Below, in pieces: positions 2,699 to 5,045 of a DNA stretch of 11,125 nucleotides (positions are counted from its first letter, which is position 1; the number at the start of each line of letters is the position of its first letter). The stretch is from a virus: the UHGV virus genome UHGV-0137787. One strand, given 5' to 3'. Both the position numbers and the translations under genes were made by a program. Below the pieces are notes generated by a model. It had not been told where the DNA came from, searched no databases, and saw nothing but the letters and a program-made list of their open reading frames with translations.

Positions 2699-2774
2699 TG
2701 GTGGCCCCTACCGGACTTGAACCGGTGACCGTGCGATTATGAGTCGCCAGCTCTAACCACTGAGCTAAAGGGCC
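2699..2774 (-). tRNA. tRNA with CAU anticodon, closest to tRNA-Ile2 (lysidine type, ileX-like); an elongator Met identity is not excluded
   Basis: Hand-folded cloverleaf: acceptor GGCCCTT/AGGGGCC, D-arm GCTC-AGTGGTTA-GAGC, anticodon loop CTCATAA, T-arm ACCGG-TTCAAGT-CCGGT, encoded CCA. Starts 3 nt after the upstream ORF stop. Confidence 0.85.
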
Positions 2775-2777
2775 GGA

Positions 2778-2885
2778 TTACTGTTTACTAAGTGCTTCAA
2801 TGGCGCTAACAATGCCGCCTACAACTATGGCAACAATGATAATGAGAACAATTGGATACTTGTCAGCAAAATCCCAGAAGCCCAT
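2778..2885 (-). CDS. Mini membrane protein, 35 aa (MGFWDFADKYPIVLIIIVAIVVGGIVSAIEALSKQ), TciC-like position
   Basis: Found by manual translation (below the six-frame cutoff). Its ATG overlaps the stop of the upstream ORF (TGATG); single predicted transmembrane helix. Confidence 0.4.
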   Translation of the reverse strand: MGFWDFADKYPIVLIIIVAIVVGGIVSAIEALSKQ

Positions 2886-3049
2886 CACTGATCCTTCGAA
2901 GCTGTTTTAAATATCGGCCATACCAATGTTACAGCTACTGCTACCAACGCACCGTCGGATAAAACCGACAGGACTGTGCTGGTGAAATCCACCAGCACAG
3001 ATAGCACGAGAAAAACCAAAGCCAGAATTAGACGTGCTTTTATAACCAT
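2885..3049 (-). CDS. Mini membrane protein, 54 aa (MVIKARLILALVFLVLSVLVDFTSTVLSVLSDGALVAVAVTLVWPIFKTASKDQ), TciB-like position
   Basis: Found by manual translation. Its ATG overlaps the TGA stop of the TerB-like gene (TGATG); strongly hydrophobic, probably two transmembrane segments. Confidence 0.45.
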   Translation of the reverse strand: MVIKARLILALVFLVLSVLVDFTSTVLSVLSDGALVAVAVTLVWPIFKTASKDQ

Positions 3050-3474
3050 CAGATATACTGTTCCAGTGGCAATTGAAGAGCCTGGGCAATTTTCTTCAAT
3101 TGCTCCTGCTCTTCTGCCCCAATGCCATCCTGGTCAGCAATATCAATGCATAGGCACAGAACATCTACCGCATCATTAGTCCCGGACACATCAGCCAGCT
3201 CACGTAAAGCCTGGGCATTAGCTCGGCGCGGCGAGGCTTCATATTGAGCGCGAATATTGGCGCTCATCTGGGCAATTTCACCGGAGAACGGCGCAAAGGC
3301 AGGAAGTGCTGCAATGGTTTTTTCCAATACTGCAATTTCTTTCGCATCGCAGGTGCCGTCAGAGTATGCAATGGAATATGCGCCCCAGACGGTCGCTTCC
3401 ACCGCATCACGGTTTTCCATCTTCTTGACTCCGCCAGCCGCTTTGCGGAATTTCTTTTTGAGAATGCCGAGCAT
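3049..3474 (-). CDS. tciA: TerB-like tellurite-resistance family protein (P1 TciA-like), 141 aa
   Basis: Size and composition consistent with the TerB family; RBS GAGG 7 nt before the ATG. Symbol is tentative and rests on context (adjacent to ban and the tRNAs, as recalled for P1). Confidence 0.7.
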   Translation of the reverse strand: MLGILKKKFRKAAGGVKKMENRDAVEATVWGAYSIAYSDGTCDAKEIAVLEKTIAALPAFAPFSGEIAQMSANIRAQYEASPRRANAQALRELADVSGTNDAVDVLCLCIDIADQDGIGAEEQEQLKKIAQALQLPLEQYI

Positions 3475-3616
3475 TTATTAACCTCATTACTGGTTGGGAA
3501 ATAAGGTTGCGGTGCCGGGTGCCTCCCGGTGTCCTTTGGCTGGTTATCTACCGTGGACGGGGAAACAAGGAGAAATGAATGGACTGATATAACCATTTCC
3601 CCGCGTGCGCTTAGCC

Positions 3617-3693
3617 GCATTCACCGCAACGGAAAGAGCATTCTTGGTGGACCTGTAGATTGGGATATGAACCCGTTACAGGAGAATGCTCTT
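3617..3693. repeat. Hairpin module A: GCATTCACC lead, 11-bp perfect inverted repeat (3634-3644 / 3683-3693) enclosing the conserved motif GTAGATTGGGATATGAACCCGTTAC (3655-3679)
   Basis: Direct inspection; paralogous to module B. Confidence 0.55.
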
Positions 3694-3877
3694 ACCTGTT
3701 GCGTACTCCGTTTCATGGAGCTAACGGCGGGGGATCAGACCGCACCAGACTGGACTTATTTCAGCGTTATGCTCATGCCAGAGAATCAAACTGTGATGGT
3801 CGGTGCTGAACTCCGACACAGGGTTGTAGCAAGCCCCGCAAAGCGCGCACTACTGTAGTTGCGGCACATCAGCCTGT

Positions 3878-3977
3878 GCATTCACCACAATGTTGAGAAC
3901 ACTGGTTGTCACGCTGCAACGCAACATTTATTCGTAGATTGGGATATGACCCCGTTACGCCAGTGTTCTCAACGTTG
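3878..3977. repeat. Hairpin module B: GCATTCACC lead, 18-bp inverted repeat (3888-3905 / 3960-3977, one G-U-compatible mismatch) enclosing GTAGATTGGGATATGACCCCGTTAC (3934-3958)
   Basis: Direct inspection. Loop motif is 24/25 identical to module A, while the stem arms have a different sequence but still pair. Confidence 0.55.
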
Positions 3978-4124
3978 TAGTGCCGGTTACGGTTCCGGCC
4001 AGGCCTCTTCCTCAACGGGGTGTTCTCCATACGGACTACCGTTTATTGGTCGTTCCTGCGGTTTATGTTGTGAAGCCAGATGCTTATCTTCTGGTTGCTT
4101 CTAAGAGCTGCACTTCATCACAAC

Positions 4125-4198
4125 GGTAAGGGTACTTCGTAGGGATTCGAACCCTCTGCCAAGCACAGCGATCTCCGACGTCGCAAAATACCCTTACC
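4125..4198 (-). pseudogene. tRNA-like remnant or non-canonical tRNA-like element bounded by a 10-bp terminal inverted repeat
   Basis: Contains a canonical T-arm (AGGG-TTCGAAT-CCCT) and a D-arm-like hairpin (GCGA-CGTCGGAGA-TCGC), but I could not fold a canonical cloverleaf; ends are GGTAAGGGTA / TACCCTTACC. Sits 8 nt downstream of tRNA-Thr. Confidence 0.3.
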
Positions 4199-4206
4199 TG
4201 TTGTGT

Positions 4207-4282
4207 TGGTGCCGGTTAACGGACTCGAACCGCTGACATCCTGCTTACAAGGCAGGCGTTCTACCAACTGAGCTAAACCGGC
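4207..4282 (-). tRNA. tRNA-Thr (anticodon UGU)
   Basis: Hand-folded: acceptor GCCGGTT/AACCGGC, anticodon stem CCTGC/GCAGG with loop CTTGTAA, T-loop TTCGAGT, encoded CCA; one C-A mismatch in the D-stem. Confidence 0.85.
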
Positions 4283-4284
4283 AT

Positions 4285-4360
4285 TGGCGATGGAGGATGG
4301 ATTTGAACCATCGACCCGTTGATTAACAGTCAACCGCTCTAACCGCTGAGCTACACCATC
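4285..4360 (-). tRNA. tRNA-Asn (anticodon GUU)
   Basis: Hand-folded: D-arm GCTC-AGCGGTTA-GAGC, anticodon stem GTTGA/TCAAC with loop CTGTTAA, T-arm GATGG-TTCAAAT-CCATC, encoded CCA; one mismatch in the acceptor stem. Only 2 nt separate it from tRNA-Thr. Confidence 0.85.
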
Positions 4361-4825
4361 ACTTGCCGGGTACGTCTCCGGCGAGGGCTTCCACCTCCGT
4401 ATGCTTTTCGGCGCCCGCGCCCTGGCTGAAATTCGGTAACAGGGGATGCATAACCCTGGCTTCCAGCGTGATTAGCGCCTTCAGCATGACGGGATATACC
4501 CGTTACAAGAAATTATCCCAGGATGCCATTAAGCAATGGCTGTTACGCTGAATGAAAAAGGACGTAACAGGTAAGGACGCTGACCAAAGAGATGGCCCCT
4601 TCTCGCTCATCTGGTTAATCGAACCAGCGCCCTTGCCTGTTATGCCTCCCCGTTCCCTAATACACAGACGGGGACACTCTGCGGTCGATTTTTTGACGGG
4701 GGACGACTCATACCCCGTGGCGTCAGGCTTCTTAGGCCGCTACCATCATCAGATCATCGTTTGCATTTACTTTAATGGTCAGTTTATAAACCGCCGCAAA
4801 GTCGCTAACCATGACGAAAACCCTG

Positions 4826-4850
4826 AAAAAACGCCCACCCGAAGATGGGC
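4826..4850 (-). terminator. Intrinsic (Rho-independent) terminator on the minus strand
   Basis: Minus strand reads GCCCAUC-UUCG-GGUGGGC followed by G and six U: a 7-bp GC-rich stem with a UUCG tetraloop. The plus strand has no T-run, so it is unidirectional. Confidence 0.65.
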
Positions 4851-5017
4851 AAACTGGATGAACAGATCGTTAGGCATTTCGGTGTCGCCACTTAGGTGCA
4901 TGGTCAACCTGGCAACTCGGTGGCCATGTGGGCGGAGTAACCCAGCCATGCTTACCGCCGCGCCTATCGCGGGTAATAACTCAATCCGCTTTATAAATCC
5001 CGTTTCATTGAAACAAT

Positions 5018-5045
5018 ATTACTCTAATAAATTTATTAGAGCAAT
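5018..5045. promoter_or_regulatory. Palindromic pair of overlapping P1 C1-repressor operator-like 17-mers
   Basis: Minus-strand site at 5029-5045 reads ATTGCTCTAATAAATTT, 17/17 against the C1 operator consensus as I recall it; plus-strand site at 5018-5034 reads ATTACTCTAATAAATTT (16/17). Together they form the perfect palindrome CTCTAATAAATTTATTAGAG, which overlaps the dmt stop codon. Confidence 0.6.

Follow-up and report, generated by a model that had tools for sequence, protein, structure and literature searches.

Tandem hairpin and STnc100-like units downstream of tRNA genes: a candidate noncoding RNA array in the ban operon of P1-like phage-plasmids

In polycistronic transcripts, ribonuclease III (RNase III) acts on processing hairpins such as those of the T7 early region, the lambda N leader, and the stems flanking 16S and 23S rRNA. 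Phage transfer RNA (tRNA) clusters can also yield small stable RNAs that are not tRNAs, as the T4 cluster does with species 1 and 2 (rnaC/rnaD), the first of which is an RNase III substrate in vitro. Small RNAs come from tRNA spacers as well, for example, 3'ETS-leuZ of Escherichia coli, and tRNA-like structures serve as 3'-end handles, as in mascRNA of MALAT1. A further group, the STnc100/PasD RNAs, is known from lambdoid Stx phages and Fels-1. Here, we describe an array of hairpins and STnc100-like domains that is partly like each of these systems and that lies between tRNA-Thr and the TerB-like gene tciA in UHGV virus genome UHGV-0137787, an 11,125-nucleotide (nt) stretch of P1-like viral DNA that we refer to as the window.

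Composite units between tRNA-Thr and tciA

It is well supported by our analysis that positions 3475 to 4206 form the noncoding part of a minus-strand unit comprising tRNA-Asn, tRNA-Thr, tciABC, trnI, and ban, and equally well supported that this part is built of three tandem, diverged copies of one composite RNA unit. The composition of the unit is well supported too: a long hairpin, with a stem of 19 to 23 base pairs (bp) and a variable loop, is joined to a multihairpin domain of ~100 to 150 nt (here called a tail) that is closed by a helix of 7 to 9 bp. Read in the minus sense, the order across this 732-nt "spacer" is tRNA-Thr, hairpin C, tail C', hairpin B, tail B, a linker, hairpin A, tail A, and tciA. 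The first hairpin adjoins the 3' CCA of the last tRNA, and the last domain adjoins the tciA ribosome-binding site. We favor, with moderate confidence, an overall reading of the array as noncoding tandem hairpin/STnc100-like units whose hairpins act in cis on RNA.

A preliminary description of this DNA had proposed two paralogous modules, each with an inverted repeat around a conserved core, and both the repeat analysis and the folding bear this out. Hairpin A (the former module A; 3625 to 3704, minus strand) is an inverted repeat with a fold z score of -5.0 and a covariance model score of 33.2 bits. Its arms, at 3631 to 3644 and 3683 to 3696 (14 nt, 93%), extend to a stem of ~19 bp with one bulged A and one U.U mismatch, and its loop holds core A. 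Hairpin B (the former module B; 3883 to 3982, minus strand) reaches a z score of -6.7 on the minus strand and 43.9 bits, and its arms, at 3883 to 3905 and 3960 to 3982 (23 nt, 91%), enclose a 54-nt loop that holds core B. When modules A and B were folded on both strands, as had been proposed, each strand came out well below the shuffles (z scores of -4.5 to -6.7 on either strand; 0/200 shuffles as stable).

The count of two modules stands for A and B but missed a third paralogue, hairpin C (4119 to 4206, minus strand), and a related hairpin, D. Hairpin C (repeat families D1, D4, and D5; inverted repeat I9) scores 36.3 bits with the covariance model and begins 0 to 2 nt past the CCA end of tRNA-Thr; the lead sequence and both arms of the modules recur over 4111 to 4206 (repeat families D1 and D5; inverted repeat I9). 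Upstream of the tRNAs, the 25-bp stem of hairpin D (4561 to 4646) carries the arm motif AACAGGTAAG, which matches the window 5 times versus 0.5 expected; the strand of this hairpin is ambiguous. Fold z scores of the hairpins overall range from -4.3 to -6.9. When long hairpins were counted over the whole window at a threshold of 20, shuffles gave 5 to 13, and the high scorers alone stood out. Weak covariance model matches mark counterparts of hairpin D in two relatives (~4365 to 4446 in L003 and ~8367 to 8448 in L075); in relatives, hairpin D scores slightly better opposite the tRNA strand and may thus belong to the family in inverted orientation. Matches of hairpin B to microRNA-precursor models in a permissive Rfam scan were set aside as chance similarities of shape only.

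The tails share a plan of their own: a closing helix, a first small hairpin, a variable center, and a last hairpin set against the closing helix. Tail A (3506 to 3630, minus strand) is STnc100-like, with a 9-bp closing helix (GUUGCGGUG/CACCGCAAC) around several hairpins. The permissive Rfam scan aligned 3508 to 3628 of the minus strand with STnc100 (RF02076) at 36.5 bits (E = 6.9e-6; model positions 31 to 147 of 206), and both the last hairpin of tail A (CCGGGAGGCACCCGG) and its 3' end (ACCGGGAGGCACCCGGCACC) are identical to the STnc100 consensus. Tail B (3792 to 3889, minus strand) is closed by UGUGGUG/CAUCACA, and its minimum-energy fold gives the same architecture, with GCACA-GGCUGA-UGUGC as the first hairpin and GUCGG-N9-CCGAC as the last, adjoining the closing helix. 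In tail C' (3976 to 4122, minus strand), the closing helix is degenerate (UGUGAUG/CACUACA) and the last hairpin reads GCCGG-N8-CCGGC; the 3' strand of this tail also forms the base of hairpin B. The homology of tail C' is the weakest of the three, with a 5' end that MAFFT misaligned.

When the closing helices of ten P1-type tails (of types A, B, C, E, and C') were aligned with those of four true STnc100 RNAs, 98% of the positions were paired and 4 of the 7 pairs had changed on both sides. The small hairpins show compensation among paralogues as well (GCACA/UGUGC versus GCGCA/UGCGC, GUCGG/CCGAC versus GCCGG/CCGGU, and CCGGG/CCCGG versus CCUGG/CCAGG). The STnc100 architecture, a GGUG...CACC helix with an abutting last hairpin, was recovered, and the folds of tails A and B agree with it. 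The terminator that STnc100 carries at model positions ~175 to 200 has no equivalent here: the match ends at position 147, and no terminator-like site was found in 3300 to 4360. As relatives of STnc100/PasD, the tails are both new and divergent. Rfam has no counterpart of the hairpin family, and the searchable literature yielded no description of it.

The tails also account for the lead sequence GCATTCACC. The lead does recur, at 3617, at 3878, and, as a degenerate copy, at 4111. It does not belong to the hairpin module to which it had been assigned, however; the STnc100-like domain that follows uses it as the 5' strand of its closing helix. The copy at 3617 to 3625, for example, reads GGUGAAUGC in the minus sense and supplies the 5' strand and the first nucleotides of tail A. 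More generally, the outer 4 to 7 nt of each hairpin's 3' arm (GUUGYG) double as the 5' strand of the next tail's closing helix, and the closings can be extended to 9 bp in tail A (the perfect helix given above), tail B (AUUGUGGUG/CAUCACAGU), and tail C' (GUUGUGAUG/CACUACAAC). Since the strands are shared, the hairpin base and the tail closure cannot both form fully, and this arrangement suggests that hairpin and tail would fold sequentially or in a cleavage-dependent manner.

True STnc100 RNAs in lambdoid contigs occur downstream of phage tRNA genes in up to four tandem copies. One lambdoid viral contig (L106, 2265 to 3380, minus strand) has four such copies, all above the Rfam threshold, behind two tRNA genes, so amplification of STnc100 has taken place outside P1-like elements too. 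The Pas small RNAs PasA and PasC, which are related to PasD, have been reported near genes for TerB domains (bioRxiv 10.64898/2026.05.13.724894), and tail A lies directly upstream of the TerB-like tciA.

The surroundings of the array match phage P1: positions 3300 to 4700 are 96% identical to it, in reversed orientation relative to the P1 record. In the P1 annotation, the interval lies inside a leftward unit that starts at the C1-controlled ban promoter and runs through a dicF-like region, tRNA-Asn, tRNA-Thr, tciA-tciB-tciC, trnI, ban, and dbn; on the opposite strand, upl (63 amino acids [aa]) and plp (125 aa, overlapping trnT) are annotated, with promoters that are predicted only. In the window, all on the minus strand, tRNA-Asn(GUU) (4285 to 4360) and tRNA-Thr(UGU) (4207 to 4282), both identified by the tRNA finder and Rfam, head the array, and tciA (3049 to 3474) follows it. 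The solitary trnI (2699 to 2774) is called tRNA-Met(CAT) by ARAGORN and tRNA-Ile2 (ileX-like, lysidine dependent) in the P1 annotation. At gathering thresholds, Rfam reports three tRNAs in the window and nothing else. The linker between tail B and hairpin A (3705 to 3791, minus strand) is conserved in an SSU5-like plasmid too.

Three other observations concern the neighborhood. The tciA ribosome-binding site (GAGG) lies inside a predicted 9-bp hairpin (AACCUUAUU/AAUGAGGUU; 3475 to 3505, minus strand) just after the STnc100-like domain, and this predicted structure may couple tciA translation to RNA structure. Two further open reading frames (ORFs), at 4552 to 5055 on the plus strand (167 aa) and 3264 to 3620 on the minus strand (118 aa), are unmatched in Pfam, and the longer one is unmatched in PHROG as well. 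Both are probably spurious, the former overlapping the structured leader and the latter overlapping tciA.

Stem covariation, transcript sense, and the tRNA link

The stems were compared in an arm-based alignment of 18 hairpin variants, in which P1- and D6-like contigs are represented by types A, A', B, C, C', and E and SSU5-like plasmids by S1, U1, N, and others. In the minus sense, 95.9% of the alignment cells pair and 11/20 pairs have changed on both sides. The covariation score is 0.504, versus 0.218 in shuffles (0/500) and at most 0.13 with the partners slid. The inner 8 to 10 bp are unrelated between hairpin types yet complementary. The compensatory change suspected from stems A and B alone is therefore upheld across paralogues, and in the alignment of P1-like relatives that had been suggested for this purpose, the stems vary with compensation.

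The sense of the structures is indicated by the wobble pairs. Single changes in stems A and B among orthologues give a plus-strand A.C, which is a G.U on the minus strand, in 12 cases and the reverse in 3; across the 18 variants, there are 29 G.U versus 6 A.C cells in the minus sense, and the antisense strand would pair at 89%. Given that neutral third-position transitions in ban, dbn, and hrdC are symmetric (65:60), this asymmetry does not reflect mutational bias. Stem B had been credited with a single imperfection, a G.U only on the plus strand, and this was taken as a hint of a plus-strand RNA. It has two, one wobble for each strand: the plus strand has U.G at 3891/3974 and C.A at 3886/3979, where the minus strand pairs as G.U. 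The 12:3 and 29:6 asymmetries speak against the hint. A structured or processing RNA family, one of several options raised in the preliminary description, is still the best reading, with the strand corrected to minus, the sense of the tRNAs and the ban operon. Taken together, these comparisons of sequences demonstrate, as far as such comparisons can, that the hairpins have been selected as single-stranded structures in the sense of the tRNAs.

The family is tied to tRNA genes. All of the cluster-terminal tRNAs that we inspected (10/10; Thr, Ser, and Asn at six loci) have a family hairpin within a few nucleotides. Family stems are 13 to 30 bp as scored (mostly 17 to 26 bp), loops are 24 to 82 nt, and the stem base CACAACG(G/T)T(A/G)AG is conserved across the family. 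The stem covariance model matches these tRNA arrays only; the first 48 kb of P1 and seven lambdoid loci gave no match, and a search of 185,579 species genomes with the stem-base pattern returned one Escherichia contig and two likely chance matches. Arrays of the same kind occur in D6-like and SSU5-like phage-plasmids. In the SSU5-like elements (E. coli, Klebsiella), hairpins and tails fill a gene-free stretch of ~2 kb on the tRNA strand, and the array of E. coli plasmid p009_B (L223, 2300 to 4400) ends in an intrinsic terminator in the tRNA sense. The array is kept in 931 plasmid records. A further gene-free array of the SSU5-like type lies at 2700 to 4200 of Klebsiella pneumoniae plasmid pIncFI-L132 (L224), where PLSDB has no annotation, as in L223.

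The tRNA set itself varies among P1- and SSU5-like loci (L003, L005, L012, L014, L075, L090, L223, and L224), with breakpoints at T-arms: it includes tRNA-Asn or tRNA-Arg(UCU), with or without tRNA-Tyr(GUA), tRNA-Thr(UGU), with or without tRNA-Ser(UGA), plus a CAU tRNA. This set presumably overlaps the known targets of anticodon nucleases, an overlap that suggests a counterdefense role for the array tRNAs.

The hairpins, which lie at the borders of the tRNAs, the STnc100-like domains, and the downstream mRNA, are most likely cis-acting processing or insulating elements and possibly RNase III sites. A near-continuous helix of ~20 to 22 bp, the length that RNase III would need, is found in hairpin B (23 bp) and, with one bulge each, in hairpins A and C (19 to 21 bp). 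Acting in cis on the RNA, the ~two helical turns at each boundary would form candidate RNase III cleavage sites. Cleavage there would detach the tRNA cluster with a short 3' trailer; it would also free the STnc100-like domains and the tciA-ban mRNA or set where their 5' ends lie. Opening or cutting a hairpin would let the next domain close, giving sequential folding, and the released domains might be Hfq-associated small RNAs by analogy with STnc100/PasD. Alternatively, the hairpins could serve as barriers to exonucleases or Rho in a long untranslated stretch.

Neither strand has a terminator between the tRNAs and tciA, and none was found at the modules, where the 3' flanks tested for an intrinsic terminator read GGUGAAUGC or GAUGAAGUG. 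No promoter-like site was found on either strand in 3300 to 5200. In RNA sequencing (RNA-seq) of P1vir, plp reads belong to an early-induced set together with dmt, tciABC, trnI, and ban (supplement of bioRxiv 10.64898/2025.12.28.696737), and upl reads rise too, in a different gene set (bioRxiv 10.64898/2025.12.28.696737).

Several points weigh against reading the array as STnc100-like units with cis-acting hairpins. Tail A falls under the RF02076 gathering score (36.5 versus 47 bits), no locus among 10 P1-like ones has a match at that score, and tails B and C' went undetected by the model in a scan of 3700 to 4130, so that architecture and covariation are what tie them to STnc100. The arms-only alignment was made in the pairing register and leans towards structure; most of the variants are close relatives, so the cell counts overstate the number of independent events; and since G.T is tolerated in single-stranded DNA hairpins, the strand asymmetry alone is no proof of RNA. 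RNase III cleavage is predicted from stem length and position, and the P1vir RNA-seq preprint gives counts with no stated library strandedness. A purely structural role does not account for the conserved core or for the strong conservation of the stem base (CACAACGTTGAG). The solitary trnI is the sole tRNA of the operon with no family hairpin behind it. Finally, a terminator-like hairpin (4851 to 4832, minus strand; GCCCATCTTCGGGTGGGC followed by TTTTTT) stands between the ban promoter/operator and the tRNAs.

The terminator-like hairpin sits in the dicF-like region of P1 (~4815 to 4916), where Rfam reports no DicF at E values up to 10. Weak, partial Rfam matches of tmRNA type were recorded at 4694 to 4861.

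The conserved core, rearrangements, and alternative readings

The two cores are identical at 24 of 25 nt, as previously claimed, and this identity has sharp borders amid unrelated arms and flanks. Core A (3655 to 3679, minus strand) reads GUAACGGGUUCAUAUCCCAAUCUAC in the sense direction; in core B (3934 to 3958, minus strand), the loop reads GUCAUAU. An 18-nt version of the core matches only these two places in the window, versus 0.01 expected. The CAU hairpin-like element described for the minus strand is present as stated: each core reads CGGG(U/G)UCAUAUCCC or, with its flanks, GUAAC-GGG(U/G)UCAUAUCCC-AAUCUAC. In core A, it forms a small GGG/CCC hairpin with the 7-nt loop UUCAUAU, stacked on CCUGUA/UACAGG. 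On the minus strand, CGGGUUCAUAUCCC and CGGGGUCAUAUCCC have three consecutive G-C pairs around a 7-nt loop that contains U33, CAU, and a purine 37 (a post hoc comparison), and the core presumably resembles the anticodon stem-loop of initiator tRNA, tRNA-fMet (UCGGGCUCAUAACCCGA). The small hairpin folds weakly and in core B does not reach significance (z = -0.97).

A third, degenerate copy of the core had also been noted, and it is real: at ~4487 to 4510 on the minus strand (family D8), 19/20 aligned positions agree after a 2-nt gap. Its sense strand, ACGGGUAUAUCCCGU, forms a 5-bp stem with a 5-nt loop and has no CAU. A long hairpin around this copy (4428 to 4552) was considered and rejected, since its fold is not significant (z scores of -1.4 and -2.3). 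Among the relatives in IMG/VR, the core is no more conserved than its surroundings, a comparison for which loci were chosen by exact core match and in which the spacer is uniformly conserved. In the variants L051 and L083, the loop is changed or deleted, and L083 lacks the small core hairpin.

Across ~100 IMG/VR contigs, the spacer is a mosaic with breakpoints at arms, cores, and T-arms. A fourth unit of 196 nt, made of tail C and hairpin C', is absent from the window but present in many relatives; other relatives have arm A joined to arm C or contain tRNA-Ser, tRNA-Tyr, or tRNA-Arg. Through recombination among the repeated arms and cores, an array can have anywhere from 1 to 4 units. In the SJ46-like elements L008, L028, L031, and L061, a core-to-core deletion removes 279 bp (3679|3934 in window coordinates). 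Its presence with either core variant implies repeated origin or crossovers at different points, and since the product is a chimeric module with arms that cannot pair, either the units can be dispensed with or the 25-bp core is a hot spot of recombination.

The last possibility belongs to a wider reading in which the repeats work as DNA, with single-stranded hairpins or cruciforms as recombination sites, cassette boundaries, or priming signals and the core as a recombination or protein-binding site. The mosaic breakpoints, the variable unit number, and the SJ46-like deletions with both core variants speak for it, as do the palindrome in the stem base (CAACGTTG) and the tolerance of G.T pairs in single-stranded DNA. 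The breakpoints also fit ordinary homologous recombination between repeats of 20 to 25 bp, however, and the annotations of the window include no dedicated recombinase, HUH enzyme, transposase, or integron integrase. Moreover, apart from the stem base, the arms differ between copies, unlike the ends of miniature inverted-repeat transposable elements or insertion sequences, and a role in RNA is indicated by the strict placement of the hairpins directly behind a tRNA CCA end inside a transcription unit. We consider a DNA role unlikely.

The array might instead be neutral debris, that is, decaying duplicates of tRNA genes and their flanks, and the ancestry of the loops gives this idea some force. 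The loop of hairpin C holds a relic tRNA T-arm, GGGUUCGAAUCCC (4142 to 4154, within a relic tRNA at 4129 to 4204, minus strand). The T-arm motif GGATTCGAACC occurs at 4143, 4221, and 4299, a spacing of exactly 78 nt. The hairpin C T-arm is thus in register with the T-arms of both tRNAs, Thr and Asn, and represents what remains of a third tRNA gene. Neither ARAGORN nor the Rfam tRNA model (RF00005) calls a tRNA in this loop; a full tRNA was rejected, the acceptor and D regions being unpaired in the tRNA register; and no relative that we examined has an intact tRNA inside a hairpin loop. Hairpin type E (L003, L223) has a canonical T-arm in its loop. The core itself matches the T-arm of hairpin C at 10 to 11 of 13 positions, and both are followed by UACGAA, past a 4-nt insertion. 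This match and the common UACGAA make descent of the core from a T-arm plausible, and we think that the 25-nt core, now resembling a CAU anticodon stem-loop, probably has that origin, to judge from its sequence. The free gain and loss of units and the missing core hairpin of L083 also agree with decay. Against it, the 20-bp stems are held by compensatory changes across paralogues and two phage-plasmid lineages, single changes are biased toward wobble pairs, and the array persists in the plasmid records counted above. Neutral debris is, in our estimate, about as improbable as a role in DNA.

Still less probable is the proposal of the preliminary description that the hairpins work in a plus-strand transcript antisense to the ban operon leader. 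The hairpins do fold on both strands, one position in stems B and A' is G.U on the plus strand only, and the P1 annotation predicts weak promoters (TTGAGA-15-TAACCT, ~3458 to 3484) that would serve such a transcript. Against this stand the 12:3 and 29:6 excess of minus-strand wobbles over a symmetric mutational background, the position of the hairpins next to tRNA 3' ends on the minus strand, the minus-sense terminator that ends the L223 array, and the match of the tail domains to STnc100 in the minus sense only.

A comparably faint possibility is that the hairpins are stalks that display functional loops, with the core either mimicking a CAU anticodon stem-loop of the initiator type or seeding base pairing in trans. 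The sharp borders of the 24/25 identity amid differing loop parts and arms would be explained in this way, and the sense motif CGGG-NUCAUAN-CCC occurs twice versus 0.00 expected, with T-arm-like hairpins in other loops. The motif test was post hoc, however, and the mimic has three base pairs only, with a fold that is not significant in core B. The other loops of the family are unrelated, that of L051 and L083 is changed or deleted, and the core does not exceed its surroundings in conservation within P1-like elements. An extension of this idea would make the arrays an unrecognized phage-plasmid noncoding RNA operon whose stalks show tRNA-arm mimics (the CAU stem-loop in cores A and B and T-arms in C and E) as decoys or sensors for tRNA-targeting host factors, with maturation tied to the refolding from hairpin to domain. 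Such factors could be anticodon nucleases, VapC-like toxins, or modification enzymes, acting beside the phage tRNAs Asn, Thr, Tyr, Ser, Arg, and Ile2. We regard the extension, host factors included, as quite improbable.

There remain the protein-coding genes that P1 annotates on the plus strand. The upl ORF, as in P1, spans 3667 to 3858 and starts at an ATG in the apical loop of core A; the plp-like ORF spans 3859 to 4104, with its stop codon at 4102 to 4104 here, whereas in P1 it continues for 125 aa into trnT. We tested both in ~70 to 90 orthologous copies collected from IMG/VR P1-like contigs by the core pattern. Variable sites by codon position are 4/4/4 in upl (4 synonymous, 8 nonsynonymous) and 6/6/7 in plp (7 synonymous, 13 nonsynonymous), compared with 1/0/10 in tciA, 21/14/98 in ban, and 31/16/82 in dbn, the controls from the same contigs. 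The stop codon of plp is polymorphic (TAA at 4102 here, AAA in most relatives), and in L223, an SSU5-like plasmid with 91% DNA identity over this stretch, a premature stop ends the upl frame after 17 codons. Protein identity for upl is 92 to 94%, and 81% in a more distant relative, at DNA identities of 96% and 92%, respectively. The ATG of upl has no usable Shine-Dalgarno sequence: UUGGGAUAUG contains GGGA alone, 1 nt from the AUG, at the tip of the long hairpin. Upl and Plp have no Pfam match, the PHROG families that they match are those built from P1-like annotations, and no upl homologue was found beyond P1-like elements, tblastn returning 15 P1-like phage records. Given the flat codon positions, the broken upl frame, and the low protein identity, the region shows no sign of coding constraint. 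The earlier statement that it holds no convincing ORF stands to that extent, although only the minus strand had been inspected and upl- and plp-like ORFs do exist on the plus strand.

Least probable of all, then, is that upl and plp are real small protein genes with the core as a duplicated, hairpin-gated initiation region (ATG plus N/T-P-L), a view favored by the in-frame ATG at the ORF start in both cores, the P1 annotation with predicted promoters, and an upl ORF intact in 71/72 P1-like orthologues but countered by the coding tests above, by the lack of any promoter-like site, and by a paralogy that reaches upstream of the ATG into the covarying arms. As annotated in P1, upl and plp are probably not genes.

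Comparison with described systems

What our analysis defines is a tRNA-linked hairpin family shared by phage-plasmids, with a function that is inferred. If the proposed reading is true, two genes of P1, a reference phage and standard genetic tool, would be reread as noncoding RNA, and the leader of the operon of ban, a replicative helicase gene, would be a dense array of tRNAs and structured RNAs. The hairpin family and the STnc100-like domains span P1-, D6-, and SSU5-like phage-plasmids, which are common in clinical Escherichia, Klebsiella, and Salmonella, and the repeated arms explain the region as a hot spot of tRNA gene gain and loss.

Like 3'ETS-leuZ and mascRNA, the array places RNA just 3' of a tRNA, and the tRNA-like relic in hairpin C lies where an upstream 3' end would fall. 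Unlike in those systems, no RCCA follows the hairpins, and the only mascRNA match in the Rfam scan was at chance level (E = 9). The likeness to T4 species 1 and 2 lies in the cotranscription of structured non-tRNA RNAs with a phage tRNA cluster; the phage family and the architecture differ.

RNase III processing hairpins and the hairpins of the P1 array both have stems of about two turns, lie between functional RNAs, and keep length and pairing. The array hairpins differ in the strongly conserved sequence of their base and in their large (24 to 82 nt), partly structured loops, and cleavage is only predicted here.

The closest likeness in architecture is to STnc100/PasD, which shares with the tails a GGUGAAU closing helix, a first hairpin, a variable center, and an abutting last hairpin, and which likewise lies downstream of phage tRNA genes and can be tandem. 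tRNA clusters, processing hairpins, and STnc100/PasD-type domains would in this way be linked in two unrelated phage types, leading to the testable hypothesis that such domains comature from tRNA operons. The P1-type tails differ from STnc100 in having no terminator of their own and in being embedded in an operon, and unlike the lambdoid STnc100 copies, which have no such element, each P1-type unit is preceded by a long hairpin.

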